A stretch of DNA of 64,000 bases from Pseudomonadota bacterium (lineage in GTDB: Bacteria; Campylobacterota; Campylobacteria; Campylobacterales; Sulfurimonadaceae): the NCBI GenBank assembly GCA_043797085.1, contig JAZDQA010000004.1, forward strand, positions 96,001-160,000, written 5' to 3'. This document shows, piece after piece, positions 8,522 to 44,014 of the stretch (the first letter of the stretch is position 1; the number at the start of each line of letters is the position of its first letter). The translations under genes and the position numbers were made by a program. The notes under the pieces were generated by a model. The model searched no databases, was not told the DNA's origin, and saw only the letters and a program-made list of their open reading frames with translations.

Positions 8522-8884
8522 TTAAAATCGATCTTTGAGATCGCCGTTGTATTTAATATCGCGCTTTGTAGCGTTTTCATCGTTTAGCCACTCGGGTAAA
8601 GCGTCGCCTACTGCTTCAAGCTTATCACGCTCGGCATTGAGCTCATCTTCACTGTAAGCGAATGACATATCTGCAGAAATAATGTGATCCATAAACTGAA
8701 TTCTTGTAAGTTTTTGAATCTCTTCTTCGACGCCTTCACCTTCAATGGTGACAATAATGCGCCCTTTTTCATCGTGAAAATGATAATCACAAAAATCAGA
8801 AGATTTAAAAATTTCGACTACTTCTTCGGTAAAATTTGGGTTGGTTTGCACCACAATGCTTGAAATATTCACGGTATTCTCCAA
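8522..8884 (-). CDS. napD: NapA chaperone
   Basis: NISSIVV..GRIIVTIEG; last gene of the nap operon. Confidence 0.9.
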   Translation of the reverse strand: MENTVNISSIVVQTNPNFTEEVVEIFKSSDFCDYHFHDEKGRIIVTIEGEGVEEEIQKLTRIQFMDHIISADMSFAYSEDELNAERDKLEAVGDALPEWLNDENATKRDIKYNGDLKDRF

Positions 8885-9807
8885 TAATAAATTTTATTCT
8901 CTTCACCCGAACCGATTAGGGTATGCTCATCCAAAAAGATCAGCGAATCGTAAAGGGTTTCTCCCCCTTTTAATCGTGCGATTTTTCTTTGAGTGGCTAA
9001 ATCAAAAACTTGTAACTCATTTTCATCACCATCGGTATAAACCCCTTTGGATGCCGAAGGGCTAAGTCCGACTGCATAGACGAAAAAATCGGTTTCGATA
9101 AAATAACTCCCCTTTGGACGATAAACCCCGACACGACGATCATGCCCACCGCTGAGGATGGTGTTTTGTTGATAGGAGAGCCCATTGATTGCATCCAGGT
9201 TGAGCCCGCTGAGCGTTTTTATTTTTCGACCACTCATTGTCTCAATTTGTACAATTTCACCACTTTCATCCCCTACGGCTAAGAGTGATTTCTTAGGACT
9301 AAGTGCCATATCCCCAAACACTCCTCCACCGGCTTGTACTTGGTAGACGAGGGTTTGCTTGTTCAAATCCATAAGAACGATTGTATCACCAGAGAGTCCG
9401 AAGAGTAAATGACTTACATCAAGAAAACGAACTTTTTTAATCAATAGTCCTCTCGAATTATCAATAACTTTTAGCATCTTATTGTCGCGCCATAGATAAA
9501 CATTTCGAAAAGATTCACCACTCTCGGTCACGATAACCGTAGATGCTGCTAAATGATCGACAGAATAGATTTTTGGGGTAAAAACTTTGCCTAAAATGGA
9601 AACGTTTGGCGCAGTTATGGAACTGAGTTTATGTTTTGATACACTATCAAAAACATTCACAATTCCTGCATCTGTTGAGGTATAAATCTTGCCTTCTCGA
9701 ACTACCATGTCGCTGATTAACCCATCGGTTTTTAGTGTTGCAGAGTGGTTAATAACAGCTGCAACGCCAGTTATAAGAAGAAAAAATAAAAAAAATAATG
9801 TTTTCAT
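8869..9807 (-). CDS. napL: Periplasmic beta-propeller nitrate reductase accessory protein
   Basis: Signal peptide, WD40-like repeats, position between napF and napD. Confidence 0.85.
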   Translation of the reverse strand: MKTLFFLFFLLITGVAAVINHSATLKTDGLISDMVVREGKIYTSTDAGIVNVFDSVSKHKLSSITAPNVSILGKVFTPKIYSVDHLAASTVIVTESGESFRNVYLWRDNKMLKVIDNSRGLLIKKVRFLDVSHLLFGLSGDTIVLMDLNKQTLVYQVQAGGGVFGDMALSPKKSLLAVGDESGEIVQIETMSGRKIKTLSGLNLDAINGLSYQQNTILSGGHDRRVGVYRPKGSYFIETDFFVYAVGLSPSASKGVYTDGDENELQVFDLATQRKIARLKGGETLYDSLIFLDEHTLIGSGEENKIYYWRIP

Positions 9808-10280
9808 GCTACCATCTCAATCGCACCGCTGGGGCACACGCCGATACAATATCCACATCCCGTACATTTTTCAGGGAGGATAATCGGATGCAACATGCCT
9901 TTGAAAACAATTGCATTCTCCAAGCACGGCTCCTTGCAGGAAAAACAAATCGTCCCGTGATGGGACATGCAATTTAACATGGTGATTTTCGCATGGCCTT
10001 GTATGAAACGATTTGGATCATTTAGTACATTCGGAGTACATGCTTCGAGACATTTATGACAATCACTGCATCCTGTTGTTTTAAAATCCAAAAAAGGGAT
10101 TTTCTGATCATCAAGACGAATGATGTTCTCTTCACACGCAGTTGCACACATCGCTTCACATGTTTTACACGCTTCAAATGTTTCATTCAAAAGCGCGTAT
10201 GGAGGGCGAGTGGAAGATTTTACGTCATTAAAGAGTGCCGAAAGAGCACCAAAAAATCCTCCTCTTTTCGCCGTTTCCAT
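9804..10280 (-). CDS. napF: Ferredoxin-type protein
   Basis: RPPY plus several CxxCxxCxxxC motifs. Confidence 0.88.
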   Translation of the reverse strand: METAKRGGFFGALSALFNDVKSSTRPPYALLNETFEACKTCEAMCATACEENIIRLDDQKIPFLDFKTTGCSDCHKCLEACTPNVLNDPNRFIQGHAKITMLNCMSHHGTICFSCKEPCLENAIVFKGMLHPIILPEKCTGCGYCIGVCPSGAIEMVA

Positions 10281-10282
10281 GA

Positions 10283-10891
10283 CTATAGTCCGTTTCCGAC
10301 TTTGACACCGATGTCAAGTTCATCCATGAGATACGATGACTTTTTATGCTTTTGACCTTTTTTATCGGTATAGTCCGGTTTGAAACTGCTCTCTACTCGC
10401 AGTTTCCCTTGGGTTTGCGGTGCATGGCATTGGGTACAGTTGTAACGTCCTTGCCAGAGTTGACCATGCAAATCTTTTTTGATAATAACATCATTGCTTT
10501 CAGATTTGAAGTTATCATCTTCATCGGATTCTACCGCCGGTCTAAAGCTCGTGAAATGCGATTTTGGTATCGAAGTTGCCCCAACACTGGGAGCAATTTC
10601 AGGCATGTGACATCCCAGACACGCATTGTTATTTTTATCAATCTCGCCTAGACTGTCAATTTCATGAGGAATCATCGGCGGTGCATTGGTATACGCACGC
10701 GGAATTTTCTTTGACGTTCCGGGAGCTTCAGTGTGATAGTTAGTCCCATCTGGTTTAGCCGTGTCTTCTGTGTATAAATCAGCACTGCGCATCCCCAGCT
10801 GTGTTTCATCTATTGAGGTATTTCCAGCGTAAAGACCGCTAATAATCAGTGAAGCAGCAATGAAGCTGCTCATCATTTTTCTTGCTTTCAT
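10283..10891 (-). CDS. napB: Diheme cytochrome c subunit of nitrate reductase
   Basis: APPMIPH, CLGCH, CTQCHAPQ. Confidence 0.95.
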   Translation of the reverse strand: MKARKMMSSFIAASLIISGLYAGNTSIDETQLGMRSADLYTEDTAKPDGTNYHTEAPGTSKKIPRAYTNAPPMIPHEIDSLGEIDKNNNACLGCHMPEIAPSVGATSIPKSHFTSFRPAVESDEDDNFKSESNDVIIKKDLHGQLWQGRYNCTQCHAPQTQGKLRVESSFKPDYTDKKGQKHKKSSYLMDELDIGVKVGNGL

Positions 10892-11706
10892 TCTTCATCC
10901 TTTGGTTGTTTTGTGAAACTTCGGATCGAAAATCCGAGCGCGTCTTCTTGACAGACATCTACGCATCTGCCACAATTTGTGCACTCACCCATAAGTACAC
11001 TTTCACTGCTGCGATTGATCATATGAAGGACCTCTTTTTCAGGGCACACCGTGATGCAACTGCGACAATCGGTACATTTATCAGCATCATGAGAAACACG
11101 GATAAGGGAAAATTTCCCGATAAGCGAATACGTCGCGCCCAGTGGACACACATACCCGCACCATCCATTCTCATGTACCAGTAAATCAAACAAAAAGATC
11201 ACGACTAGCGCACCGCCGCCCATCCCCATACCGAAGATAAGTCCACGGTGAGCCATTGAAACAGGGCTGATAAGTTCAAACGCTGCTACTCCCATAAGAG
11301 CAGAAAGGATTAAACTCAAACCTAAAATCCAATAGCGTAATGATCGGCTCATATAAAATCGTTTCTGCACTTCAGAAAATTTCAAAGCTCGACGCAGCCA
11401 TGCCGCCGTATCGGTAATAATGTTGATAGGACACACCCAGCTGCAAAAGGCACGCCCACCGATAACACCATAGAAAAGTGTCACGATTAATGCACCGAGC
11501 AGTATATCCATCCCTAAACTTGCCCCCGTAACGGCAATTTGCATCACCGCATAGGGATCACTTAGGGGAATAACTCCCAACACAGAGGAAGTGCTGAGAT
11601 TACCTTGCAACATTTTCCATCCCCACACATTGGCTCCTATATAAAGAACCAAGAGTGTGATTTGTGTTAAACGACGGAGGATTAAATAGCGATAATTTTT
11701 CATCAT
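10888..11706 (-). CDS. napH: Quinol dehydrogenase membrane subunit
   Basis: LRRLTQ, GRAFCSWVCP, WCGYVCPLG, two 4Fe-4S motifs. Confidence 0.95.
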   Translation of the reverse strand: MMKNYRYLILRRLTQITLLVLYIGANVWGWKMLQGNLSTSSVLGVIPLSDPYAVMQIAVTGASLGMDILLGALIVTLFYGVIGGRAFCSWVCPINIITDTAAWLRRALKFSEVQKRFYMSRSLRYWILGLSLILSALMGVAAFELISPVSMAHRGLIFGMGMGGGALVVIFLFDLLVHENGWCGYVCPLGATYSLIGKFSLIRVSHDADKCTDCRSCITVCPEKEVLHMINRSSESVLMGECTNCGRCVDVCQEDALGFSIRSFTKQPKDEE

Positions 11707-12506
11707 AATCCTCCTTCGTCATTGAGTGAATCAAGCGCACTTTTTTCGCTTATCTTGGTTTTAGTGACCTCTATTGAGGCTCCTTCTAACCGTTTTTCGT
11801 CCGTTTTATCCCACCCTTTTATATAGTGGTCTCCCACTTTCCCCATGGCTAATGCTCTGGGGAAGATATGGATAGCGGCGATTTCAGTAACACATGCGTG
11901 CTCACACATCCCGCATCCTGTACACACTTCCGCATGCACAACAGGTTTTAAAAATGCATGCTTCCCCGTGCGTTCATTTTTGGACGTTTCGATGGTAATG
12001 GCTTCGCCTAAAAGCGGACACGCACGGTAGCACGCATCACACTGGATTCCCCACACGGCGATACACGAACTCTCATCGACCACCGCTAAACCCATACGCG
12101 ATTTATTGATGTCCAAAACGGCTTTGCTTTTCACATAGCTGCTTACGGAGGGTTCGTTCAATGCACCGCTAGGGCACACCGGTACACACGGAATATCCGT
12201 ACACATATAACAAGGTACAGATCGTGGGGTAAAAAACGGTGTCCCGATGGGGAGATTGTCCCCTGGACGCGCTAATATCAGAGTGTCATACGGACACGCT
12301 TCCACACACAAACCGCACTTGATACAGTTTTTGATAAACTCCGCTTCATCCAGCGCTCCCGGAGGGCGCAAAACCAGAGGCGCTGCTTTTACTTCACCCA
12401 CATAGGCACTCCAGACCAAAGCCCCCATCGCACTCAACCCAATTCCTCTCGCAATAGAGAGGAGAAAACGGCGACGATCATTAGGAGTTTTAGTACTCAT
12501 GGTCAT
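11703..12506 (-). CDS. napG: Quinol dehydrogenase periplasmic ferredoxin subunit
   Basis: Tat RRRFL, LRPPGA, four Fe-S motifs. Confidence 0.95.
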   Translation of the reverse strand: MTMSTKTPNDRRRFLLSIARGIGLSAMGALVWSAYVGEVKAAPLVLRPPGALDEAEFIKNCIKCGLCVEACPYDTLILARPGDNLPIGTPFFTPRSVPCYMCTDIPCVPVCPSGALNEPSVSSYVKSKAVLDINKSRMGLAVVDESSCIAVWGIQCDACYRACPLLGEAITIETSKNERTGKHAFLKPVVHAEVCTGCGMCEHACVTEIAAIHIFPRALAMGKVGDHYIKGWDKTDEKRLEGASIEVTKTKISEKSALDSLNDEGGL

Positions 12507-15295
12507 TACGCTTTATAGATTTTGACGGCACATTTTTTGTGGTCGATTTGTTTAGAAATCGGACACGTGTGATCCAAACATACTTTGTTGATAAATACTT
12601 TTTCATCAAACCATGGTACGAATACCAATCCTTTTGGAGGACGGTTACGACCACGAGTTTCGACGTGTGCTTTTACTTTACCACGGCGTGATTCTACCCA
12701 CACCATCTCGCCACGCTTCACTCCGCGCTTTTGTGCATCATCAGGGTGCATATAACACAATGCCTCCGGAACCGCACGATAAAGCTCAGGAACACGCATC
12801 GTCATGGTACCGCTGTGCCAATGCTCGAGTACACGACCGGTACAAAGCCAAATGTCATAGTTTTTATCAGGTACTTCGGTTGGTTCCATATACGGACGGA
12901 AAAAGATTTTGGCTTTGTTATCCAAATTCACTTTTGCACTGTTCGTAACCCCTTTAAGATTTCCGGTTGGAATGTCTTTGAACGCATGGCCGTAGAATGC
13001 GAATGCACCGTTGTTTGCTTTTTTCGCATACGGATCGTATTTCGCGTTGTAACGCCAGAACGTCTCTTTCCCATCGACAACCGGCCATTTTAGACCGCGT
13101 ACACGGTGATAGGTATCGAAATCGGCGTAGTCATGTCCATGCCCGTCACCAAATTTACGATACTCTTCCCAAAGATATTTTTGGATGAAGAAGCCATATC
13201 CTTTGAACGGTTTTCCATCGCTTCCGATAACATTACGTTTATCGCCTTCAACTTCAGAGTTTTGATAGCCTTTGCCCACTGGATCAGGCCATTTAAATGC
13301 TTTTGCCCGTGCATTGCCAAAAAGGACATCGTACAAGGTTGAGTTATCGTTGTATCCCATTGCTTTGGCTTTGCCCATAACGTCAGGTAATCCGCCATCC
13401 AGTCCTGGAATTTTTTGCGCTCCCCATACTTCTTTGATCGTAAAGCGTTTGGAAAGCTCTACAAACTGCCATGTATCGGACATCGAATCACCCATTGGAG
13501 TGACTTGCTGACGCCAGTGTTGTGTTCGGCGTTCTGCATTACCGTACGCTCCCCATTTCTCATACATCATCGCACTTGGTAAAATCAAATCGGATACTTT
13601 TGCTGAAATTCCCGGATAACCATCGGACGTTACGATAAAGTTGTCCATGTTTCGAGCTGCTTTAATCCAGTGATCTGCATTACCGGTATCTTGATACGGA
13701 TTACAAACACTGACCCATGCAAATTTCACCTTGCCATCTTCGAGATCACGGTGGATCTGAGTAAAGTGCGATCCTGCTTTTGGGTTAATCGTTCCATCAG
13801 GAATCGCCCAGATGCCTTCTGCCATTTTACGGTGAGCAGGGTTCATGACGACCATGTCCGCAGGAAGTCGGTGACTGAATGTTCCTACTTCACGAGCTGT
13901 TCCACACGCGGATGGTTGACCTGTGAGCGAGAATGCACCATTACCCGGTTTGGCTTGTTTACCCAGTAGGAAATGCACCATGTAAGCTTGTTCATTAACC
14001 CATGTTCCACGTGTATGCTGATTAAAGCCCATCGTCCAGAATGTCAAACATTTGCGTTTTTTCTCGATGTAAAGATCTGCCATTTTTTTAAGTTTTGCTT
14101 TGTAGCTTTCCATGCTCTCATCTGCATCACCTTTGGAAACGTGTGCAACATAATCGAGGGTATAGGGAGCAAGACCTTTTTTGAACTCTTCAAAGGTGAT
14201 TTTCCAATGTTTGTTCGCATCATTGGTATTTTTCATCTCCAGCGTATCGCCCTCTTTGTAGCCTAAATATCCAAGACTGACTCCCTCATCGGCAGTTAGA
14301 ACTTTAGATTTTTGTTTGGCTGCGGTATCGAGCTCTTTCGCCCCATATTTAGGGTGGTGAATGTCTTCGCGAAGCCCGTATCCGATGTCTACAGGACCGG
14401 TTGCAAATACGATATTTTTATCTAAGAACTCTTTGTCCATGGCTTCAGGATGATTGTACACAATCTCACGAGCGATGTAGTTCCAAATCGCCAAATCGGT
14501 ATTAGGCTTGAAGATGATTTCGACATCCGCTAGGTCCATCGTACGATGTTTGTAGGTCGATAGAACAACAACTTGTACTTTATCAGGATTACTAAGTTTA
14601 CGATCACTGACACGTGACCAGAGGATAGGGTGCATTTCCGCCATATTTGAACCAAACGCAACAATCGTTTCAGCAAGTTCAATGTCCTCATAACAGCCCG
14701 ATGGTTCATCCGCTCCAAAAACGTTCATGAATCCAGTAACAGCAGATGCCATACAAAGACGTGCATTAGGATCGATGTTGTTGGTACGGAATCCCGCTTT
14801 CATTAGCTTGAGTGCTGCGTGACCCTCCATCGCCGTTTGCTGACCTGAGCTGAACATCGCGATGCCGGTAGGTCCTTTTTCTTTGAGAGCTGATTTGATG
14901 TGTATTTCCATCTCATCAAAAGCACGTTTCCAGCTGACAGGTTTGAATTTGCCCTGCTTATCAAATTGGCCTTTATCGTTCATGCGCAATAACGGCTGAG
15001 TAAGACGATCCGCACCGTACATGATTTTGGCGTTAAAGTATCCTTTGATACAGTTAAGACCGCGATTAACCGGAGCCAATGGATCACCCTTGACTGCGAC
15101 GATACGATCGTCTTTGGTTGCCATCATGATACCGCATCCCGTTCCGCAAAAACGGCATGCCGCTTTATCCCAACGCCATCCTGCCTGACCCTGAGCTGAT
15201 GCTGCTTCGACTGAAGCAGGTACTGCCATTCCTATTGCTGTTGCGGCAGACGCTGCTGCTGCACTTTTTAAAAATTCTCTTCTATCCAATGACAT
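12506..15295 (-). CDS. napA: Periplasmic nitrate reductase catalytic subunit
   Basis: Tat [37 protein letters not shown]; start at ATG 15295 after an AAGGGGG RBS. Confidence 0.97.
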
Positions 15296-15416
15296 AAAAG
15301 CCCCCTTAGTGGAATCACTTGTTCGTTCCAAAATGGACGAACTCCTTAAGTTTTCCTGATGCTATGAAATAACTCATGCACTTCAAACATTATAAAGAAA
15401 TAGGAGAAAAAAGGTT

Positions 15417-18950: not shown

Positions 18951-20705
18951 TTAGAGCTCCCAATATTTCTTGCTAGTCATTAATTTCTTGATTTGCGGAG
19001 AAAGGTTTTGATCGGCTTGCCCAATCGTCCAAAGTTTTTTACTCAAAGAGCGTATAGCATTTTCAAAATTATTGTCAATCAGAGATAAAAAGGATTCGCC
19101 GGAAAAAGACTCTTCCAACAACTTTCTTTCTGCGTCAAAACGACAAAAAGCAATTTTGTAAAAATGGGTATTATCCAAACTGTGCAACATCATTTTTGAC
19201 CCTGTATCAAGTTTCGCCAAAAACCATAACGCACAAAACTCCTCTGAATAATGGTTGAGGACGTGGGTAGAAAAGTCTTCAAAGCTCTCCTGTTCACTGG
19301 CTTCATACTCATCGATAATCATCTCGATAACATTACCGATGTGTTCGATGGGAACCATCGTAAAAAGCTCTCTTCCCACACTGATCCCATTCGAGTGTTG
19401 TGCTCCAAAATAGATGCGTGCGGCTTTATCAACCTCTCCAAAACTGCTCGTACGCAATCCTATCAGCCCAATATCGCAGTGCTGATGTCTTCCACATCCT
19501 TTGGCACAGCCTGAAACACCCACTTGGATACGATGCTTTTGAATTTTATCCAGAGGCAATAAAAGTGCTTCATTTTTTAAATCCCAAAACGAAAATGGGC
19601 AATAACTGCTCCCTGCACACACAATTACTGTGGCGCTTTTGGGGAGATTTTCAAAAGGGGATGTTTTTTCAAAAAGCCCTAAAATGACAATATTTTGCTG
19701 GGTAGTGAGTCGCACTTCTGCTTCGTTTATATGGGCAAAAGTGGCGATTCGTGTAAGCTCATCGGGTGTTACACGTCCAAAATCACTCTCATAGCAAAAA
19801 GCATAGCTCCCGTCTTGAAGTTTTTCACTCTTCGAAAATTTTCTTTTTTCCAGTATCAGCGTCCCTGCAGTTTGCCACGTTTTTTGATACTCTTGTGCAA
19901 TGTATTCTTTAAACATTTCGATGCCGATCGTCTCAAGGAGATAAAAAAGACGTATTTGTGAGCGTGTCGTTCGTAACCCATGTTTGTTAAATGCCTCGAT
20001 AAAAGCACTAAAAAAAACTACGACTTCATCCGTGAGCAAGAATATATTGGCACAGCGGGCTATCTCAGTATTTTTGCCGCCCATATAGACGTTAAATCCG
20101 AAAATTTTATCTTTTTGTGCCAATCCAAAATAGAGATCATTAGCAAAAAATGAGGTAACATTCGCTCGATTTCCAGAAATACCGGTTGAAATTCTCCGTG
20201 GTAACATCCCAATTTGACGAGGAATTTTGAGGATAGTCTGTTCCATTTTCACAATAAGGGGATATGCCTCAATCTCGCAGGTTTCACCCAGACCGTCATA
20301 CACATCCGTCACGATATTTCGAACATTATCGCCAAACGTCTGCCATGTGGTGATTCCTGTTGCGTTAATTTGATGAAAAACACTCAATACGTTCTCGCTG
20401 GTAAGTCCATGCAGTTGTATTCCTGCACGTGCGGTCAGGATGATGTCAAGAGAATGAGACTTTGCAATGTGCGCAATGGAGTGAAGTTGTTGAACAGTTA
20501 TACGACCTGCCGTGATGCGCAAACGAAGAGTAAAATCTTCTTCATTCAGAGGGTTATTAAAAATACCAAAATCTTGAAGATAAAAAATGTCGGCTTCACT
20601 GAGTGCACTAAAATCAAGAGTTTCAATTTGCGGATAATAGTCATACGGAATCATTTTCGCTTTGTAGCGTTCCCGTTTATTCAGCTTTTTTTCGACAATA
20701 CTCAT
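18951..20705 (-). CDS. Siroheme nitrite/sulfite reductase (NirA/Sir-like)
   Basis: LRLRITAG, DNVRNI, RLTTQQN, CAGSSYC and SGCAKGCG cluster ligands. Confidence 0.85.
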   Translation of the reverse strand: MSIVEKKLNKRERYKAKMIPYDYYPQIETLDFSALSEADIFYLQDFGIFNNPLNEEDFTLRLRITAGRITVQQLHSIAHIAKSHSLDIILTARAGIQLHGLTSENVLSVFHQINATGITTWQTFGDNVRNIVTDVYDGLGETCEIEAYPLIVKMEQTILKIPRQIGMLPRRISTGISGNRANVTSFFANDLYFGLAQKDKIFGFNVYMGGKNTEIARCANIFLLTDEVVVFFSAFIEAFNKHGLRTTRSQIRLFYLLETIGIEMFKEYIAQEYQKTWQTAGTLILEKRKFSKSEKLQDGSYAFCYESDFGRVTPDELTRIATFAHINEAEVRLTTQQNIVILGLFEKTSPFENLPKSATVIVCAGSSYCPFSFWDLKNEALLLPLDKIQKHRIQVGVSGCAKGCGRHQHCDIGLIGLRTSSFGEVDKAARIYFGAQHSNGISVGRELFTMVPIEHIGNVIEMIIDEYEASEQESFEDFSTHVLNHYSEEFCALWFLAKLDTGSKMMLHSLDNTHFYKIAFCRFDAERKLLEESFSGESFLSLIDNNFENAIRSLSKKLWTIGQADQNLSPQIKKLMTSKKYWEL

Positions 20706-32466: not shown

Positions 32467-34107
32467 TTACGCACCTGGAAGATCCATGCGGTGCTCAATA
32501 GAATAAGTAAATGTTGGTGTTGTTAGCCCAGTAATTTGGGTAATGTATTCACCTGTTTTTGCGTCAAATACTAATATTCGTCCACATGTCCAATCCGAAA
32601 CATACGTATGCTCCCCATGAGCAGCAGGTTCTCCATGCAGTAATCGAGGGACAATAAGTTCGCCTTTTTCATTTTTTACGGCACCAATATTCCATTCTTT
32701 TATCACTTTGAGATTGTTCGGATCGATGAGCTGCACTTTGCCCTCTTTAGTCGCTTGGATAATGCGTCCGACCATCAACGTTTCTTTGTTGACTAGATGG
32801 ATTTTATTATAATTGTCTTCTCCGCCGATAACGTTGTCCGCCCAAAGAAAAGGTGTATGTTCATTGGTTCCGATAAATAGTCCGCCGCCGGCTGTTTTGG
32901 TGTGTTTTAATACATGCCATTGGTTGTCCCAAACGGTTACATCGCCTACATTCATGTTGACCGTTGCATGAAGCTGTTTACCTAATTTTTCATTGTACCA
33001 GCTTGAACCTTGTCCAGGATGCGGCTTGCTTCCCGGTCCGGTATAGACTTTATCTGTTAATGTTTTGGTTTTAAAGTCTACTATCCCCATGACATCACTT
33101 CCTTGAGAAGCTATCATGTAGTAGCGTCCTACCTCTTCTCCCTCATTCAAGAAGGCATCGTGTAAGATTTTACCGATTTTAGGAATATCTCCGACGATAG
33201 GGAAATCAGGCTTACTGTAATCGACGATATAGACGTGTCCTGCATCTTTAAGTGCAAATGCAATATATGGACCGTATGGAGTGTCGGCGATCGATGCAAC
33301 ACGAGAGGAGCCGATTTTGCCATCCATGTCTTCGACTTGATCGGTCGCATAGACTTTCAACGGTTTAAGTGTCATAGCATCCAAAAGTACGGCACCGCCT
33401 GGAACATAGTTACCCGCCATGAGATAGCGACCATCGGGCGTACAAGCAAGTCCGCGACTGTCGCTGCCGACACGGATTTTAGCGATCATTGGTTGTCCTG
33501 GGGCATTTAGATCAAACATATTGACCCATCCGTCACGACTGATGTTATACACGTAGCGAGGGATACGTTTATTGACTACGGTTACGTGAGTCGCGAAACC
33601 TGAGCTGTGTTTGGAGAGGACTTTGTTTGTTGTACCGTCAATAAATCCTACTTTTGAGGCATCCCGCTCGGTAAAGACCACGATATCCTGTACGCTTTTT
33701 ACGTCCGTTGGTTTCGGATATTTTTTGTACAATTCTTCACGGTCTTGGAGGATTTGATGTGTAGCAACAACATCTTCCATGGTGAGTTTCGTTAACTGTT
33801 TTGCTTCATATTTTAAGAGATATTGCACCATTTTATCTGCATCATCACTGGTGAACGTACTCTTAAAATCAGGCATTGCAGTACCGGCTCTTCCGTTAAG
33901 TATCGTATCTCTCAGAAAATAATCTCCTTTTTTACCAATGGCTTTTGGGTCAAGAGAACTTCCTACACCACCTTCGTGATTGGGGCCATGACACCCTTGA
34001 CACTCTTTGTCAAACATTTTTGCGACGTCCATTTTCGAATCGCCAGCCATTAGTGGAAGGGTTATAAAAAGAGCGCTCGCCAGGGTTGCTCCAAGAATCT
34101 TTTTCAT
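32467..34107 (-). CDS. nirS: Cytochrome cd1 nitrite reductase
   Basis: Signal peptide, CQGCHG...GTAMP c domain; d1 propeller with ATH, LHD and KPHPG histidines. Confidence 0.9.
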   Translation of the reverse strand: MKKILGATLASALFITLPLMAGDSKMDVAKMFDKECQGCHGPNHEGGVGSSLDPKAIGKKGDYFLRDTILNGRAGTAMPDFKSTFTSDDADKMVQYLLKYEAKQLTKLTMEDVVATHQILQDREELYKKYPKPTDVKSVQDIVVFTERDASKVGFIDGTTNKVLSKHSSGFATHVTVVNKRIPRYVYNISRDGWVNMFDLNAPGQPMIAKIRVGSDSRGLACTPDGRYLMAGNYVPGGAVLLDAMTLKPLKVYATDQVEDMDGKIGSSRVASIADTPYGPYIAFALKDAGHVYIVDYSKPDFPIVGDIPKIGKILHDAFLNEGEEVGRYYMIASQGSDVMGIVDFKTKTLTDKVYTGPGSKPHPGQGSSWYNEKLGKQLHATVNMNVGDVTVWDNQWHVLKHTKTAGGGLFIGTNEHTPFLWADNVIGGEDNYNKIHLVNKETLMVGRIIQATKEGKVQLIDPNNLKVIKEWNIGAVKNEKGELIVPRLLHGEPAAHGEHTYVSDWTCGRILVFDAKTGEYITQITGLTTPTFTYSIEHRMDLPGA

Positions 34108-34207
34108 TCGTTACTCCTTGCATTTGTAAAATATGGATAGGGCATAGTTCGTAAAGCTTTATGGATCCTACTTGAGTTAGTGTACTTGAAAAGGGGAGGC
34201 AGCTTCA

Positions 34208-34221
34208 TTGATATAAATCAA
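34208..34221 (-). promoter_or_regulatory. Fnr/Dnr-type box for nirS
   Basis: TTGATATAAATCAA, 23 bp from TACACT (34179-34184). Confidence 0.82.
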
Positions 34222-34235
34222 ATTTTTTAAAGTTT

Positions 34236-34877
34236 TTAAGAAAAAAGTTCTTTTAGTCCCTCTCGATTCAAGATGGTGAAATTTTTCCCCTCATCACTGA
34301 TGAGTCCGAGAATCTTGATTTTTTTGAAAGAGCGTGAGAGTGTTTCGGGGGTAAGTCCTAAAATCGTTGCAATCTTATGTCTCTTGGTTGAATCGGAAAT
34401 ATCTCCATTTTCATATAAGAATTTAGCCACACGGGAGGTTGCATCCAGTGCTAACCGTGTGGTAATAATATCTTCGAGGTATTTGAGCTTTTGAGTCAGC
34501 GATTTTATCAATTCAAAGGATACGGTAGGATTTTTTAGAAAATCACGCTCAAAAATAGGATAATCGATTTCCAAAATACTTCCATCCGTTTGAAATTCTG
34601 CGGTTGCCGGGAATGGAATATGGTGAAGATTGGCCATTTCTGCTACTAACGAAACGGGATAAAAATAGTGCAGTACGATTTCGTTTTCTTTCATATCTGT
34701 TTTGTAGCCTTTGAGGACACCGTCTAGTAATATATAAAGTTTATCCGAATGAGTCCCCTCATAAAAGAGGATCTCACCATTATTAAAGGATCGTAGTTTT
34801 ACGATAGAGGCTAAATGAATTAAATCTGTTTCGCTCAGATGTGAAAAAAGAAAAATACTTTTTAATCGGTTCACCAT
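34236..34877 (-). CDS. Crp/Fnr family regulator (Dnr/NssR-like, no Fnr cysteines)
   Basis: LFYEG, AEMANL..IPFPATA, recognition helix TPETLSR; ATG overlaps the TonB receptor stop (TAATG). Confidence 0.92.
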   Translation of the reverse strand: MVNRLKSIFLFSHLSETDLIHLASIVKLRSFNNGEILFYEGTHSDKLYILLDGVLKGYKTDMKENEIVLHYFYPVSLVAEMANLHHIPFPATAEFQTDGSILEIDYPIFERDFLKNPTVSFELIKSLTQKLKYLEDIITTRLALDATSRVAKFLYENGDISDSTKRHKIATILGLTPETLSRSFKKIKILGLISDEGKNFTILNREGLKELFS

Positions 34878-37060
34878 TAAAGTTTCAAATTGGTTTGTAG
34901 ATACCATGATCGTCCTTCTGCTTTTTCATAACTGTAATACTCTTTGTTCATAAGATTGCTAATCGCAAGATTGATATCAATGTTTTTGTTGATTCTGTAT
35001 CCGATCTTCGTATTGACGATTCCGGCAGCATCCAAGGAGCCGTAGACATTAGAGACACTATCGCTATTATCGGAATTATTGTAAATTTTGGATTGATAGG
35101 CATAGTTAATCAGACCATAAAATTGATGATTATCATAGGTGAGAGTTGCATTGGCCATATCTCTTGGAATGCCGGTGAACTGTTTATCAACGGATGCTGG
35201 ATCGCTCTCATTTTCTAAAACTTTTGTATAGGATTTCGTATAATTGGTGTTGAGGGTAAAATCATAGTCAAGCGGCTGAATGTACGATAATTCATACCCC
35301 TGAGAGCGTGCTTTTCCAACGTTTGTTCTTTCATAATAACTTTTTCCGGCAATGATAACAGGCGTTTTAGTGGAGATCATATCTTCGATTGTGGTATGAA
35401 ACCAATACGCTTTAAAAAGACCGTTTAAGACTGTTTTTTTCTCTATCCCCACATCATACGATTCGCTGTACTCCGGTTTTAGATTCGGATTCGACACATA
35501 AACTCTATTTAATGCTGCAATTTCATACGTTCGATAAAGATTGACCGGATCAGGAGCTCTGAAAGCTTGCCCCCAGGATGCTTTGATCATCGTGTCGTCT
35601 GTTGCTTTATAGTTGAGAGATATTTTTGGGGAAAAATTATTTTTGTGTTGGGTAGAATAGGTTTGATTGAGCGTTGTATTGGACATATTGATATCAGAAA
35701 CATATCCATCATAGCTGGTCCATGTTTCGAATCGGGCCCCGATATTGGCTGATAGACTATCGGTTAGTTTACTTTGCAGCTCTGCAAAAGCCGCTAATAT
35801 TTGCTCTTTCCCACCTGAGCTCGCGGTCCTATTTGTTTTGGTGTCTTCATTTTTCCAATCGCTCATATTGAAGGTATCGGAAACGGATACATTATTTTTA
35901 TATTCACTTCCCAGTAAAAGAAGAGAACTTCCGATAGGTTTTTGCCACGTTGCATGGAGCATAGCGTTTTTGACATCTCTTGGGGTAAAAGTACCAACTC
36001 CGCCTGTGCGTGTCGCCGATGTACCTGCAGTGGTATACCAATCTTCTACAGACAAGTATGAATAGCGGATATCCAACTCGGAATCCGAAAAAGTATGTCC
36101 GTAATCAAGGATAGTGAGATCACTGTTCAGCTCACTGGAACCTTGTAAAAATTTAGATTCTTTTAGTCCTGCATAGGTATAGACAGTATTTCCAGAAGCA
36201 TTACTAATAAATGATTCAGGATCATTGTAGTGCACATCATAATGGGATTTTCGATACGAAGCACTCAGGGTGTCTTTGGCCGTTGGTGTATAGAGCAGTT
36301 TGGTTGAAAGATCATATTTGTGAACACCACGATCACCTGCATTTCCGACAATATATTGTGTCCCTCCGGTGGGAGAAGGCTCCGTGATGTATCCGCTAAT
36401 CGTACCGGGAGGCTTTGTGGTAATGGCAACAAAATCGGATTTATATCCATCAGTACTTAACGCGCCATAGCTGACTTTGAATTTTAAAGTATCAATGATC
36501 TTATCCGCAGCCGATACATAGACCTTGGTCAAATTAGCCTGCGCTTCACCGTCATTAAATGCATCTCCGTACCCGATAGAGGCTTTGTACTCAGGCTCAT
36601 TTGGCATTTTGGTAATATAATTGATGACACCGCCTATAGCACTGCTGCCATAAAGGCTCGAAAATGGTCCCCGAATCACTTCAACCCGTTCTAAATCTTC
36701 AGGCTGAATAGAATAGGGCATCGAAGCCGTACTCGTATAGCTGGTATTCATTGGAATTCCATCGAGTAGTATCATCGTACGTGATTGATCCGGAATCCCT
36801 CGAAGCACAACCGTAGGATTGACATCTGATAATCCCCTATGTTGAATAACTGTAACTCCCTCAAGTGTTTTTACAGTCTCTTTTAGATTGGCTCTTGGTA
36901 ACATTCCAATAGCTTCTTGTGTAACAACACTGACGCTTCCGGGAGCATCTTCGAGAGTTGTTTCTGTCTTGGTTGCGGTAACAATGATAGGATCTAAGGA
37001 AACTCCATCCGCAATTAAATAGGTTGTGACGACCAAAAAAAGTAGTATCTTTTTTTTCAT
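34877..37060 (-). CDS. TonB-dependent outer-membrane receptor
   Basis: Signal peptide, DPIIVTAT TonB box, plug (RG...ILLDG, IEVIRGP-like motif, SSLYGSSAIGGVIN), NPNLKPE, NL.NKEY. Confidence 0.95.
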   Translation of the reverse strand: MKKKILLFLVVTTYLIADGVSLDPIIVTATKTETTLEDAPGSVSVVTQEAIGMLPRANLKETVKTLEGVTVIQHRGLSDVNPTVVLRGIPDQSRTMILLDGIPMNTSYTSTASMPYSIQPEDLERVEVIRGPFSSLYGSSAIGGVINYITKMPNEPEYKASIGYGDAFNDGEAQANLTKVYVSAADKIIDTLKFKVSYGALSTDGYKSDFVAITTKPPGTISGYITEPSPTGGTQYIVGNAGDRGVHKYDLSTKLLYTPTAKDTLSASYRKSHYDVHYNDPESFISNASGNTVYTYAGLKESKFLQGSSELNSDLTILDYGHTFSDSELDIRYSYLSVEDWYTTAGTSATRTGGVGTFTPRDVKNAMLHATWQKPIGSSLLLLGSEYKNNVSVSDTFNMSDWKNEDTKTNRTASSGGKEQILAAFAELQSKLTDSLSANIGARFETWTSYDGYVSDINMSNTTLNQTYSTQHKNNFSPKISLNYKATDDTMIKASWGQAFRAPDPVNLYRTYEIAALNRVYVSNPNLKPEYSESYDVGIEKKTVLNGLFKAYWFHTTIEDMISTKTPVIIAGKSYYERTNVGKARSQGYELSYIQPLDYDFTLNTNYTKSYTKVLENESDPASVDKQFTGIPRDMANATLTYDNHQFYGLINYAYQSKIYNNSDNSDSVSNVYGSLDAAGIVNTKIGYRINKNIDINLAISNLMNKEYYSYEKAEGRSWYLQTNLKL

Positions 37061-37181
37061 ATTAACTCCTATTTCAGGGATTTTTTAATCTATACTACTC
37101 AAATTAAGCCTTTAGGAGCGGAAAGAGGAAATTAGTTACGTAAAGAATAGGTAATTGTAAAGAGTTTGAAGAATAAAGTCT

Positions 37182-37195
37182 TTGATATAAGTCAA
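37182..37195 (-). promoter_or_regulatory. Fnr/Dnr-type box for the TonB receptor-regulator operon
   Basis: TTGATATAAGTCAA, 22 bp from TACAAT (37154-37159). Confidence 0.82.
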
Positions 37196-39909: not shown

Positions 39910-41595
39910 TTAAATGGCAGAAATTTTATATCTAGAAAGTTCTCTTCCTTTGGTATCGATCACATGAACCGCACACGCCAAACATGGATCAAACGAATGA
40001 ATCACCCGTAATACTTCCAACGGACGTTGGGCATCTGCGAGCTTTATTCCGATAAGCGATTCTTCATACACACCTCGCTGTCCCATAGCATCTCGCGGTG
40101 ATGCATTCCATGTCGTTGGTGCTACGACTTGATAGTTCGCGACTTTTGCATCTTCAATTCGTACAAAATGACCCAAGACACCTCTGGGAACTTCAAAAAT
40201 CCCTGCACCTTTGGATACACTTGGCAAGGCTTCAAAAACATACTTTGTCCATGTTTCTTCATCATAATATTTGATGTTTTCGATTAAATCGCTCATAAAA
40301 TCAAAAAGATAATCGCAGCATATCTGCGCTTCGACGGCACGCGCCGCATTGCGTCCGATGGTTGTCGAAAAATCGATCAGAGTCATTCCCGTATCTTTCA
40401 TAAAACGATCCATATAGGGTTTAATCACTTTAGAGTTTTTCACCACGCCCACGATCATGCGAGCAACAGGACCTACTTCCATCACTTTTCCGCCATAGCG
40501 AGGAGCTTTTACCCAGCTATATTTCCCCTCACTTTTGAGCGTTCCATCCTCATTCAAATCGGTATAAAACGGGACACTCTCTTGATCGTATGGCGAGCTT
40601 GGAAGAGCATCTTCATACCAAGATCGGGATGCTTCTTCTGTGATTTTAGACGGATCAAAAGGTTCTATCGCATCAAAGTAATGCCCTGTAACGACACCAC
40701 TTTCAAAAAGCTGTTCTTTTGAAGCAAATTGATACCCGCCGCAGCACATAAAGTTTCCGCTTCCGCGCCCTTCACCCATTTTGATCGATTCTTCGTATGC
40801 TTTTACCATCATCTTCATGTCAGGTATATACGCACGCTCCAAGAAATCACGCGTCTCTTTGATCAGAAACATAAAATCATTGAGCCGTTGAGGGTTGAGC
40901 ATGTCCACAACACTGGTAACGCCTCCAACAACTAGATTTTGAGGGTGCGGAGTTTTTCCGGCGAAAATAGCGATGGCTTTGGAAATGTCATGCTGAATCC
41001 GAAGCGCTTCGAGATAATGGTTCATATGGACCAAATTTTCTTCAGGAGTCAGCCGATAGCTCTCATGTCCCCAATAACCATTAGCAAAGAGTCCTAACCG
41101 CCCTGCTTTGACGAAACTGTTCAGCTTCTCTTTGACGCTTTCCAAATGCCCCTCAGAGTTTCGATAAGGGCGTTCGTGATACTGTTGTGCACTCTTGACC
41201 GCTTTAGAACAATCCGCCGTTAAGGCACTCGTAATATCCACAAAATCAAGTGAATGAAGATGATAATAGTGAATAATATGATCTTGGACAAAAAGAGAAA
41301 GAGAGACAAGATTACGGACAATCTCGGCATTTTGAGGTATCGTAAGCCCATAGGCATCCTCAACAGCACTGATTGAGGCACGGTAATGAACGTTAGTACA
41401 AACACCGCAAATACGCTGCGCGATAAGCCCTGCATCTCTTGGATCACGTCCTTGTAGAATAATCTCTATACCGCGAAACAGCTGTCCGGATGCCCATGCA
41501 TCGGTAACAATATTTTCATCATTCACTTCTACTTCTATACGTAAATGCCCTTCAATACGAGTGATAGGATCGATAACGATTTTACGGTTACTCAT
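39910..41595 (-). CDS. [NiFe]-hydrogenase large subunit, group-1-like
   Basis: DPITRIEGH, L1 QRICGVCTNVH, L2 SFDPCLACAVH plus cleavable tail; start ATG 41595 overlaps the upstream stop. Confidence 0.95.
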   Translation of the reverse strand: MSNRKIVIDPITRIEGHLRIEVEVNDENIVTDAWASGQLFRGIEIILQGRDPRDAGLIAQRICGVCTNVHYRASISAVEDAYGLTIPQNAEIVRNLVSLSLFVQDHIIHYYHLHSLDFVDITSALTADCSKAVKSAQQYHERPYRNSEGHLESVKEKLNSFVKAGRLGLFANGYWGHESYRLTPEENLVHMNHYLEALRIQHDISKAIAIFAGKTPHPQNLVVGGVTSVVDMLNPQRLNDFMFLIKETRDFLERAYIPDMKMMVKAYEESIKMGEGRGSGNFMCCGGYQFASKEQLFESGVVTGHYFDAIEPFDPSKITEEASRSWYEDALPSSPYDQESVPFYTDLNEDGTLKSEGKYSWVKAPRYGGKVMEVGPVARMIVGVVKNSKVIKPYMDRFMKDTGMTLIDFSTTIGRNAARAVEAQICCDYLFDFMSDLIENIKYYDEETWTKYVFEALPSVSKGAGIFEVPRGVLGHFVRIEDAKVANYQVVAPTTWNASPRDAMGQRGVYEESLIGIKLADAQRPLEVLRVIHSFDPCLACAVHVIDTKGRELSRYKISAI

Positions 41596-44014
41596 GCGGT
41601 TCCTTTGGAAGTGGTCGATTATTGGCATATTCGTCAAACGCGATCTTACCCGCACCGCAGGCAAAACATCCATGACCTGCTTGTACCGGCCAGCTAGTTC
41701 CCTCATTAAACTTTACTTGTGGGCAGTTCATTTGGGCATACGGTCCTTTGCATCCCATTTGAAACAAACACCACCCTTTTTTTGCCCCTTCATCCCCCCA
41801 TTCGAGGACAAACTCACCCAAATCAAAATGTCCGCGCCGTTCGCAGTTATCATGAACTAAAAAACCATACGCCCACTCAGGACGATTTTTGGCATCCAGT
41901 TTTGGAAATTCGTCAAACATCATAAAATGAAGCAATGTTCCTACAATATTGATTGGATTAACCGGACATCCGGGGAGATTGATAATGTCTTTTCGCCCCA
42001 GTGCTTCTGAAACTCCAACAGCACCGGTCGGATTAGGTGCGGCAGCTACGACACCGCCATCATACGCACACGATCCCACGGCGATGACAGCTGCCGCATC
42101 TTTTGCAACACGTTGAAGCAGTGCATGTCCTGTTTCCCCTTTTGGACCGATACGTAAATATTTTCCATCCAGACCAAGCGGTACTGCTCCCTCGACAATC
42201 AAGATGTATTTACCTTTGTCATATTTGATAATATTATCAAGCACGTTTTCCGATTCTTCACCCGATCCAGCCATTAGTAGCTCATGGTAATCAAGCGAAA
42301 TGTATTTAAGAATCAAATCATCGATTTTCGGATGAGATGATTTGATAAACCCTTCTGAATTTCCACTGCAATCAGAGAGTTCCAACCAGATGATAGGGAT
42401 TTTATTGAGCTGCGCAACCCCCTCTTTCACCACCTCTTCGAAATCAGGATGCAAATGCATCGTCGCCGTAATCATCGAAACCCATTGGTTATATTCTCGG
42501 CTCATATCAAAAGAAGCGATTGCTTCTTCAAGATTTTCGGCACTGAGCTGATTTTTAGGATGGATGGTATTGTATTTATTGATCCGTGCACGAACACGTT
42601 CCAGCTCCGCTTCTTTAAGCTTATTTTCTCGTTCCTCTCTAAGTCGTACAGCTTCTTCATGATTTACTGGCGTAGCCGCGATCAAAGCAGAAATATCTTG
42701 CTTGCAACGACCGCATACACGACCTGCATTGGTATACGGTTTAAGTTCGATAAATGAAGTAATAGCATTGAGCTTGATAATTTCAATGAGATCTTCTTCA
42801 TAAGCACTCTCACAACTGCAAACCAAACGACCCTTTGTGCTATTGAGACGATTTGAGTAAAAGTACGCCGGATCAATTGTCTCATTTTTTTCCATTAATT
42901 TCTTGAGATGGATCAAATCAATATTGGTATTAATACCGATAAAGCGCTGGAGGTGATCATGATTGATGATGTATTGATCGATTCGATTTTTATGGGTGAT
43001 GAGGATGGTTTCGTTCTCTGAATCTTTAGGATTATAATTTGGGGAACGCACATCAGCAAAAAGAAATGAACCCACTTTTAGCCCATCAATAGACACCGTT
43101 TGCTCAAAAGTTTTTCTTTCTAGCCCCAACAATGTGTTAATAGCAACATCAGCTTGCAATGTACATTCTTTTACTCGTCCGGCAATAAATCCATTTTTAC
43201 GCAATTGTGCTGCTTCACCGACACAATAAATATCAGGATTAGAGGTACGCATTGTGTCGTCTACTAAAATACCTTTGTCACAATCGAGCACTCCACGGGC
43301 GAAAGAGACATTAGGATCAATCCCTGCTCCAAAAATAAGAAAAAGATTGTCAATCGTTCTATGACGCGTTTGGATTTCAGTGATTTCATTTTTATTAACT
43401 TTTTTACTGACTATCTCATCATTAAAATCGATTCGTATTCGTGGATCTTGTTCGAAAATTCCTCGTAGCAGTGCAATCCCCTCTCGACTTAAATCCGATG
43501 AATAAAGATGCTCTTTTCGAGCAAGTAAAGTAATTGATTCTGGGAATGGACTGCGCATCAGTGTATCAAGAAGTTCCAGCCCGATAGGTCCAACTCCCAC
43601 TATCACGATATTCTTTCCGATTATTCCTTGCTCTATTTTTGTACACTCTTTTTCACTTCGAAACGTCGATGCATTCTTGATTCCCTGAATATCAAAAGGT
43701 GCTTTAGGCTGAGATCCGGTTGCAATTATGAGTTTATCATAGGAAAATGCTGCATGTTCACTTAAAATACGTTTGGTTGAGACATCAATACCGACAATTG
43801 CCTGATTGAGTTCCAAACGTACTTTAGGATCAAGATCAAGGGTAATCGACTCAACGCATTGGCTTTTTTCCACAAGAGCGCAAAGATGAATTCGGTCATA
43901 CGGAGAATGAGATTCCTCAGATACAATCAGAACCTCACACGAACGATCCTTTTGCAATAACGTGTTAGCAAGATATACAGCAGATATTCCACCGCCTACA
44001 ATCACAATCCGCAT
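41588..44014 (-). CDS. Fusion of NirB-like FAD/NAD(P)H oxidoreductase, BFD [2Fe-2S] domain and [NiFe]-hydrogenase small subunit
   Basis: GGGISA, ATGS, GVGPIG, YCVGE; CSC...CGRC; WLELSDCSGN, VEGAVP, GSCA, LPGCP, HDNC, GWCLFQMGCKGP, HGCFAC. Confidence 0.92.
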   Translation of the reverse strand: MRIVIVGGGISAVYLANTLLQKDRSCEVLIVSEESHSPYDRIHLCALVEKSQCVESITLDLDPKVRLELNQAIVGIDVSTKRILSEHAAFSYDKLIIATGSQPKAPFDIQGIKNASTFRSEKECTKIEQGIIGKNIVIVGVGPIGLELLDTLMRSPFPESITLLARKEHLYSSDLSREGIALLRGIFEQDPRIRIDFNDEIVSKKVNKNEITEIQTRHRTIDNLFLIFGAGIDPNVSFARGVLDCDKGILVDDTMRTSNPDIYCVGEAAQLRKNGFIAGRVKECTLQADVAINTLLGLERKTFEQTVSIDGLKVGSFLFADVRSPNYNPKDSENETILITHKNRIDQYIINHDHLQRFIGINTNIDLIHLKKLMEKNETIDPAYFYSNRLNSTKGRLVCSCESAYEEDLIEIIKLNAITSFIELKPYTNAGRVCGRCKQDISALIAATPVNHEEAVRLREERENKLKEAELERVRARINKYNTIHPKNQLSAENLEEAIASFDMSREYNQWVSMITATMHLHPDFEEVVKEGVAQLNKIPIIWLELSDCSGNSEGFIKSSHPKIDDLILKYISLDYHELLMAGSGEESENVLDNIIKYDKGKYILIVEGAVPLGLDGKYLRIGPKGETGHALLQRVAKDAAAVIAVGSCAYDGGVVAAAPNPTGAVGVSEALGRKDIINLPGCPVNPINIVGTLLHFMMFDEFPKLDAKNRPEWAYGFLVHDNCERRGHFDLGEFVLEWGDEGAKKGWCLFQMGCKGPYAQMNCPQVKFNEGTSWPVQAGHGCFACGAGKIAFDEYANNRPLPKEPHE

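Follow-up and report, generated by a model that had tools for sequence, protein, structure and literature searches.

A lineage of Sulfuricurvum and a few relatives in other genera has lost nirC, nirJ, nirF, nirE and nirDLGH, which in related genomes follow the cytochrome cd1 nitrite reductase gene nirS, and it always carries one particular TonB-dependent receptor (TBDR), encoded in the transcription unit of a regulator gene (dnr) just upstream of nirS. To our knowledge, haem d1 is made solely for NirS, through a costly dedicated pathway; no description of its uptake, salvage or auxotrophy was found in a full-text literature search, which did not extend to subscription journals. The arrangement is described here from a stretch of 64,000 nucleotides (the window; contig JAZDQA010000004.1, positions 96,001 to 160,000 of the forward strand) that belongs to a Sulfuricurvum metagenome-assembled genome (GCA_043797085.1) of 2.40 Mb in 14 contigs and 95.86% completeness. 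TBDR-dnr-nirS is best explained as a portable three-gene module, which provides a cd1 nitrite reductase without haem d1 synthesis of its own, and we lean towards the view that the receptor brings haem d1 or a late precursor, for instance dihydro-haem d1, into the periplasm, where apo-NirS would be loaded with it. Scavenging of haem d1 had been proposed in a sequence-only reading of the window; both computational tests, a search of the full genome and phylogenetic profiling, support it, which leaves the proposal well supported, short of proof.

Arrangement of the receptor, regulator and nirS genes

The genes concerned form the string TBDR-dnr-nirS-norCBDQ on the minus strand of the window:

34877..37060, minus strand: TonB-dependent receptor, 727 aa, with PF07715 (Plug) and PF00593 (barrel) domains
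34236..34907, minus strand: CRP/FNR-family regulator, 223 aa, with PF00027 (cNMP_binding) and PF13545 (HTH_Crp_2) domains
32467..34107, minus strand: nirS, cytochrome cd1 nitrite reductase, 546 aa, matching PF02239 with 209 bits and PF13442 with 42.7 bits
27802..32237, minus strand: norC, norB, norD and norQ, encoding the nitric oxide reductase cNOR and its maturation proteins (Pfam), directly 3' of nirS

The adjacency of norCB to nirS that had been read from the sequence is thus confirmed and extends to norD and norQ. The described coupling of the receptor to the regulator is likewise seen as an overlap of the receptor stop and regulator start codons, which takes the form TAATG if the regulator begins at its second methionine and spans 31 nt otherwise. 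The regulator contains no cysteine in its 223 residues and hence does not possess the FNR cysteine cluster; from its context it appears to be Dnr/NssR-like, and sensing of nitric oxide (NO) or haem is predicted. In the congener G141, the position that norCBDQ occupies in the window is held by nirC-nirJ-nirF-nirE-nirDLGH. G141 has the normal family layout, in which nirS is accompanied by nirC (a small cytochrome c), nirJ, nirF, nirE, a fused nirDLGH-type gene and a sirC-like gene. Its NirS is 82% identical to that of the window, and the regulator family, the box preceding nirS and the presence of nor genes nearby are the same; however, G141 has all six d1-related genes and no receptor orthologue, whereas the reverse is true of the window.

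Distribution of the receptor and the haem d1 genes

Three genome sets were profiled, namely a sample of the family (n=151), all family genomes (n=353) and all genomes of the genus (n=66). In the family sample, nirS is present in 56 genomes. NirJ is encoded in 50 of these, and in almost all of them the two genes lie no more than 3 kb apart. The six nirS genomes without NirJ are G034, an 80%-complete assembly in which nirS is truncated by a contig end, and G000, G129, G135, G139 and G043; the latter five are exactly the genomes of this sample with a receptor orthologue at 47% identity or more. Within the genus, nine genomes encode NirS and the receptor and neither NirJ nor NirF, three (G141, G534 and G537) encode NirS, NirJ and NirF and no receptor, and the remaining 54 lack nirS, receptor and NirJ alike. 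G141, G534 and G537 served as positive controls, with nirJ, nirF and nirDLGH adjoining nirS.

Among all 353 family genomes, the receptor orthologue was found in 11 genomes from three genera (nine Sulfuricurvum, G043 and G602), whose completeness ranges from 81 to 100%, with six at 99-100%. The order TBDR-dnr-nirS, on one strand, is kept in all 11, and the flanking genes vary between nor, nnrS, nrdDG and rrf2. Phylogenetic profiling hence bears out the expectation that this receptor clade is found with nirS only in genomes lacking the d1 genes, which holds for 11 of 11 orthologues. A term search of a paper on NirS phylogeny (ISME Commun 2024, PMC10999283) found nothing on the co-occurrence of d1 genes.

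Absence of haem d1 biosynthesis genes

In the source genome, nirS is the only match to PF02239 (Cytochrom_D1), and therefore neither NirF nor NirN is encoded. No NirJ was found with TIGR04051 (best score 45 bits, compared with 219-392 bits for true NirJ proteins of the family, the lowest of which are fragments at contig edges), and PF17805 (AsnC_trans_reg2), the marker domain of the NirDLGH decarboxylases, has no match. Searches of the same genome by tblastn with the nirC, nirF and nirDLGH proteins of G141 returned nothing, and nirJ returned weak radical-SAM matches only. With nirE and sirC as queries, the only matches were general siroheme-branch genes on other contigs, two cobA/cysG methylases and one sirC. 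Given these matches and the lack of matches to the d1 genes, the cell can probably make siroheme and nothing further along the d1 branch. The window itself contains a 584-aa NIR_SIR protein (18951-20705, minus strand) that is closest to the ferredoxin-nitrite reductase NirA (204 bits, below the cut-off); NirA-like proteins are siroheme enzymes, which accounts for retention of the siroheme branch where the d1 branch has been lost. The observation that no d1 genes are present in the denitrification cluster therefore holds for the whole genome, and the full-genome check that had been proposed beforehand gave the same result in the 10 other receptor genomes: neither NirJ, NirF nor the NirDLGH domain was found in any of the 11.

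In the pathway as currently described, the steps of NirDLGH and NirJ are cytoplasmic, NirF together with NirC introduces the keto groups in the periplasm, and NirN completes haem d1, the insertion of which into NirS also takes place in the periplasm (PMC13168839). In family members with d1 genes, NirS and NirF are the only Cytochrom_D1 proteins and no NirN-like third copy was seen, so that the last step of the pathway, acrylate formation, may be absent or different in this family.

Conservation of NirS

The sequence-only reading had described NirS as intact, and this is upheld by alignment with Paracoccus cd1: the c-haem motif CQGCH is found at residues 36-40, and the three d1-pocket histidines of the Paracoccus enzyme, His200, His345 and His388, have as counterparts His174 (proximal), His316 and His363 (both distal). 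With a CXXCH-containing c-domain, a d1 propeller and these three residues, the window protein belongs by sequence to the cytochrome cd1 family, and reduction of nitrite to NO with bound haem d1 is predicted for it. In comparisons with solved structures it matches NirN at 8e-41, Paracoccus cd1 at 2e-38 and Pseudomonas cd1 at 1e-33; the solved NirN has an aspartate at the alignment position of His316, the middle of the three. None of the residues C36, C39, H40, M78, R148, H174, H316 and H363 varies among the 32 aligned NirS proteins of the family. At 22 positions, the nine NirS proteins of the clade in this alignment share a state that differs from 22 others in the family, 21 of which are shared by the d1-making G141, and K227R is the sole clade-specific position relative to G141. 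As the site residues are unchanged from G141, the cofactor site is read as serving the same cofactor. Within the receptor clade, the ratio of nonsynonymous to synonymous substitution rates (dN/dS) is 0.019-0.044 for nirS (dS 0.16-1.7), 0.031-0.079 for norB and 0.098-0.159 for the receptor; nirS is thus under strong purifying selection and is constrained like norB.

Family, fold and relatives of the receptor

The receptor matches the Plug and barrel domains with 87.5 and 183.4 bits, respectively, and begins with a signal peptide and a TonB-box-like LDPIIVTAT (read by eye only). As the genome also encodes a TonB system, with four TonB_C matches, the protein is predicted to function as a TonB-dependent transporter. 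The best NCBIfam model is TIGR01785 (TonB-hemin), with 205.3 bits at a cut-off of 316.85. It had been considered that the receptor might group with BtuB or siderophore receptors, which would have spoken against haem d1 uptake; this did not materialise, as those models score far below their cut-offs (135 bits and 600 for TIGR01779, BtuB; 132 and 223.5 for TIGR01783 and 128 and 745 for NF007478, both siderophore-type). The PqqU model NF041535 gives 106 bits at a cut-off of 1200. A FRAP box followed by an NPNL box, with a conserved histidine between them, is typical of haem receptors. The window receptor has both boxes, as AFRAPD and SNPNLKPE, with no histidine among the 20 intervening residues.

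An AlphaFold2 (AF2) model of the receptor (predicted local distance difference test, pLDDT, 84.7) has a 22-strand-type TBDR fold, and Foldseek matches it at E 1e-46 to Cir, PfeA, PqqU and PhuR, with BtuB and ChuA ranked almost equally. A copper receptor of the NosA/OprC type was also considered and rejected: it is not among the 25 family matches listed, and OprC is 40th in the fold search.

An order-wide scan of 401 genomes, in which the family is represented by 38, yielded a single outgroup receptor, that of G472, which belongs to another family of the order and is 45% identical to the window receptor. Its gene lies in an operon with the following extent and content:

L044:8797-19032: receptor operon of G472, with Peripla_BP_2, FecCD, two ABC ATPases, an ABC-2 permease and a 1250-aa CobN-like protein

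This hmu-like operon adjoins [FeFe]-hydrogenase maturases of the hydE/G/F type. Further relatives were sought in metagenomes with generic plug motifs as patterns, so that the 80 loci kept are distant relatives, with at most 37% identity to the window receptor, and do not include the sister receptor clades at 41-53% identity. Five of these relatives, at 32-37% identity, have the same partners as the G472 receptor. No binding protein, ATP-binding cassette (ABC) importer or CobN-like gene was found beside the nirS-linked receptors; a CobN/HmuS homologue is missing from the source genome, and its sole FecCD system is encoded on another contig. The lack of an inner-membrane route for the receptor is consistent with a ligand destined for the periplasm. 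HmuS is a CobN-like haem dechelatase that removes the iron from haem (PMC12583661).

Evolution of the module and a second nirS-linked receptor clade

In a tree of 36 NirS proteins, a clade of 14 members (support 100/100) sits on a long stem and comprises the nine Sulfuricurvum receptor genomes (100/100), G043 and G602 (95/87) and the three congeners with d1 genes. Two state changes are needed on the best tree, and the approximately unbiased test (AU) does not reject monophyly of the receptor genomes (p 0.145). The nirS-linked Campylobacterota receptors likewise form one clade (SH-aLRT 100) in a tree of 54 receptors, with an inner split identical to that of the NirS tree, Sulfuricurvum on one side and G043 plus G602 on the other, indicating that receptor and nirS have been inherited and transferred together. 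Since G043 and G602 belong to other genera, in which the usual nirS is only 63-65% identical to that of the module, the three-gene unit appears to have spread horizontally without d1 genes; together these data point to movement of TBDR-dnr-nirS as a unit.

Six loci of the metagenome scan contain a second clade of receptors, from DNA of high guanine-plus-cytosine content (high-GC), which share 56-71% identity among themselves and 26% with the window receptor. Five of the six hold sequence on the relevant side, and in all five a canonical nirS (PF02239, 511 bits) is divergently adjacent to the receptor gene. Two of the high-GC loci also contain a Dnr-type regulator and a Chalcone_3 protein, which might be a periplasmic ligand-binding partner:

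L059:8302-8928 and L064:8318-8947: Chalcone_3 (PF16036) protein, ~208 aa, directly 3' of the receptor gene

Searches by tblastn with nirJ, nirF, nirE and nirDLGH of Campylobacterota found nothing in the high-GC loci, which extend 6 kb to each side. Well-supported branches of the 54-row tree separate this clade from the Sulfuricurvum-type clade, and its relatives fall into at least 181 protein clusters, those with names being Burkholderiales or Betaproteobacteria. Hence, the second clade appears to have become linked to nirS independently, by convergence.

Regulation and expression

According to the sequence-only reading, nirS, the receptor gene and napA are preceded by the same box at the same spacing. 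The shared box is present in this genome, as TTGAYNNNNRTCAA, which occurs 10 times in the window (0.76 expected; none of 100 shuffles reached 10); the spacing, however, is similar and not identical among the three:

34208-34221: FNR/Dnr-type palindromic box of nirS, starting ~114 nt 5' of the start codon
37182-37195: FNR/Dnr-type box of the receptor gene, starting ~135 nt 5' of the start codon
15417-15430: FNR/Dnr-type box of napA, starting ~100 nt 5' of the start codon

The receptor box lies in an intergenic region common to a divergent hsp20 open reading frame (ORF). The nirS box is found at the same place in eight of nine receptor-clade genomes examined and in G141. A box upstream of the receptor gene is present in only three of eight related genomes (G000, G129 and G135), and co-regulation of the receptor with nirS is therefore not general. 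In G139, G152, G153 and G154, the receptor gene is preceded by a structured leader in which a 15-bp stem encloses ~40 nt and a second hairpin covers the ribosome-binding site (-32.1 kcal/mol, z -6.3):

L018:7890-8003, plus strand: structured leader, found likewise in L019, L020 and L009

The window retains only the 5' half of this leader, as a remnant at ~37076-37100 (minus strand). The leader could be a riboswitch-like or attenuator element; a search around the module and in five related loci, the leader included, gave no Rfam match, which argues against a cobalamin or other known riboswitch.

Three contigs of one groundwater metatranscriptome library, two of them within the receptor gene and the third within nirS, are 100% identical to the module and compatible with expression. 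Libraries X4 and X6 cover the whole stretch and may consist of DNA. In X19, a lake metatranscriptome, nirS-like contigs of ~95% identity were found and none on the receptor gene. Such contigs show neither level, strand nor joint transcript, and the parts left uncovered are uninformative.

Proposed import of haem d1

On these grounds we propose the following route. Under anoxia or in response to NO, the Dnr-type regulator would induce nirS and, in this genome at least, also the operon of receptor and regulator. With energy from TonB-ExbBD, the receptor would bind haem d1, or a late precursor (dihydro-haem d1, for instance), originating from neighbouring cd1 denitrifiers and would deliver it to the periplasm. 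There, NirS exported by the Sec pathway, with its c-haem already in place, would take up the cofactor non-covalently on His174, and the adjacent cNOR would clear the NO formed. An inner-membrane importer would be unnecessary, in keeping with the absence of binding-protein and ABC genes beside the receptor gene.

The closest working analogue is PqqU (YncD), by which E. coli and other non-producers import pyrroloquinoline quinone (PQQ) across the outer membrane only and load the apo-form of a periplasm-facing dehydrogenase (PMC12124388; bioRxiv 10.1101/2022.06.07.495086). The logic is the same as that proposed here, and PqqU is among the top structural matches (9c4o), no better than other receptors; ligand and client are different, the window receptor is not a member of the family (106 bits versus 1200), and it shares a gene string with its client enzyme and a regulator. 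Corrinoid salvage by BtuB is a further case in which a receptor takes up a complex tetrapyrrole that many of its users are unable to make, resulting in the kind of cross-feeding that is proposed for the window receptor. In contrast, B12 continues to the cytoplasm through BtuCDF, the window receptor reaches 135 of the 600 bits required for BtuB, and no cobalamin riboswitch was found near its gene.

The haem receptors PhuR, ShuA, ChuA and HemR (TIGR01785) constitute the best-scoring curated family, have the FRAP and NPNL boxes in common with the window receptor and bind an iron tetrapyrrole, as is proposed here. They differ in that the window receptor remains under the cut-off of the family and has no histidine between the boxes, that genes for a haem ABC importer or haem degradation do not lie alongside, and that its linkage is with a Dnr-type regulator and not with iron control. 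The nearest relatives outside the nirS-linked clade are the receptors of hmu-like operons (45% identity in G472, 32-37% in metagenomes), which import into the cytoplasm and occur without nirS; none of their inner-membrane and chelatase parts is kept by the nirS-linked clade.

Several points weigh against this proposal. The literature searched contains no record of haem d1 occurring free in nature. NirF is reported to be essential in model organisms (PMC13168839); should insertion require it too, a functional NirS would be less likely where NirF has been lost. The 11 genomes do not count as independent cases, because origins are few (one or two on the NirS tree, plus transfers), and all module genomes with titled records are metagenome-assembled. 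As for the receptor, it falls below the cut-off of every curated receptor family and lacks the histidine between FRAP and NPNL that is typical of haem receptors, and its fold gives no clue to the ligand, because siderophore, B12, PQQ and haem receptors rank alike. G472, with its 45%-identical receptor, has no nirS, and the two sister receptor clades are known from metagenome proteins alone. Finally, the Dnr-type box 5' of the receptor gene is missing in five of eight genomes, four of which have the structured leader instead, and the metatranscriptome contigs could stem from contaminating DNA.

Alternative explanations

The receptor could be an ordinary importer of haem or iron for the iron-rich denitrification enzymes, placed beside nirS only by shared anaerobic regulation or by history; the supply of a cofactor to NirS, if there is one, would then be unrelated to it. 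This is suggested by the haem/haemoglobin model TIGR01785 being the best for the receptor, by the database label of its relatives ('iron complex outermembrane receptor protein') and by the haem-type ABC/CobN operon around the nearest outgroup receptor, HmuS being a haem dechelatase (PMC12583661), and the association with nirS may trace to one or two events. We nevertheless consider it unlikely, since an iron receptor would not be expected to be absent from 54 nirS-negative and three d1-making congeners. Moreover, neither a binding protein nor an ABC importer adjoins the receptor gene, the genome has no CobN/HmuS homologue, and with two ferrochelatase genes the cell is not a haem auxotroph on that count. 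The receptor promoter contains an FNR/Dnr-type box and no Fur-like box that could be seen by eye, and a second receptor clade seems to have become linked to nirS on its own.

Alternatively, NirS could use another tetrapyrrole, siroheme-derived or protohaem, or haem d1 made by unrelated enzymes, and the receptor would then be irrelevant. Genes of the siroheme branch, a sirC-like one and two for cobA/cysG methylases, are indeed retained, the match of NirS to NirN (8e-41) is as close as that to a model NirS (2e-38), and NirN is missing from the whole family. We regard this explanation as improbable, because the site residues are invariant, with K227R as the only clade-specific change relative to G141, because no replacement genes travel with the module and because a siroheme decarboxylase domain was not found in any of the 11 genomes. 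That nirS is a decaying or moonlighting relic, or that the d1 genes are missing through binning or assembly, is very hard to credit and was rejected: the genomes with titled records are metagenome-assembled and two are only 81% and 91% complete, but dN/dS is 0.02-0.04, no higher than that of norB, at nearly saturated synonymous sites, and no reading frame is disrupted. In addition, long contigs join nirS directly to nor or nnrS, where relatives have d1 genes, and the same genes are missing in 11 concordant genomes, six of them 99-100% complete.

Implications of the proposed haem d1 import

If haem d1 is imported as proposed, denitrification by these sulfur oxidisers, which are abundant in groundwater, would be a property of the community, tied to other cd1 denitrifiers. 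Metagenomic nirS counts would give too high a figure for self-sufficient nitrite reducers, and the module would represent a minimal nitrite-reductase cassette that can be transferred. It also provides an entry point to the passage of d1-type tetrapyrroles across membranes and their insertion into NirS in the absence of NirF. A broader version, which we put forward tentatively and with some doubt, is that haem d1 is a shared good of anoxic communities, and that at least two unrelated lineages, Sulfuricurvum-type Campylobacterota and Burkholderiales-type bacteria, have each recruited a haem-type receptor to nirS, dropped d1 synthesis and become 'pirates' that depend on d1-producing neighbours; the three-gene module would then spread horizontally because no biosynthetic baggage is needed, and autonomous nitrite reduction could no longer be predicted from nirS.

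Other features of the window

Apart from the boxes of nirS and the receptor gene, the window contains eight FNR-type boxes (3786-27920). These include boxes before nrdD (6937), before a porin-like 447-aa ORF after napD (8499), before napA (15417), before moaA and a second CRP gene (17056), before the NirA-like reductase (18934 and 20783) and inside norQ before COX3/COX4-like genes (27907). Together, the FNR-type boxes of the window look like one large anaerobic regulon island, within which the nap genes are arranged as follows:

8522-15331: napAGHBFLD operon of the Campylobacterota type (Pfam)

On the other side of the module, a two-gene [NiFe]-hydrogenase with a small subunit fused to a flavoprotein is encoded at 39910-44014 (minus strand).

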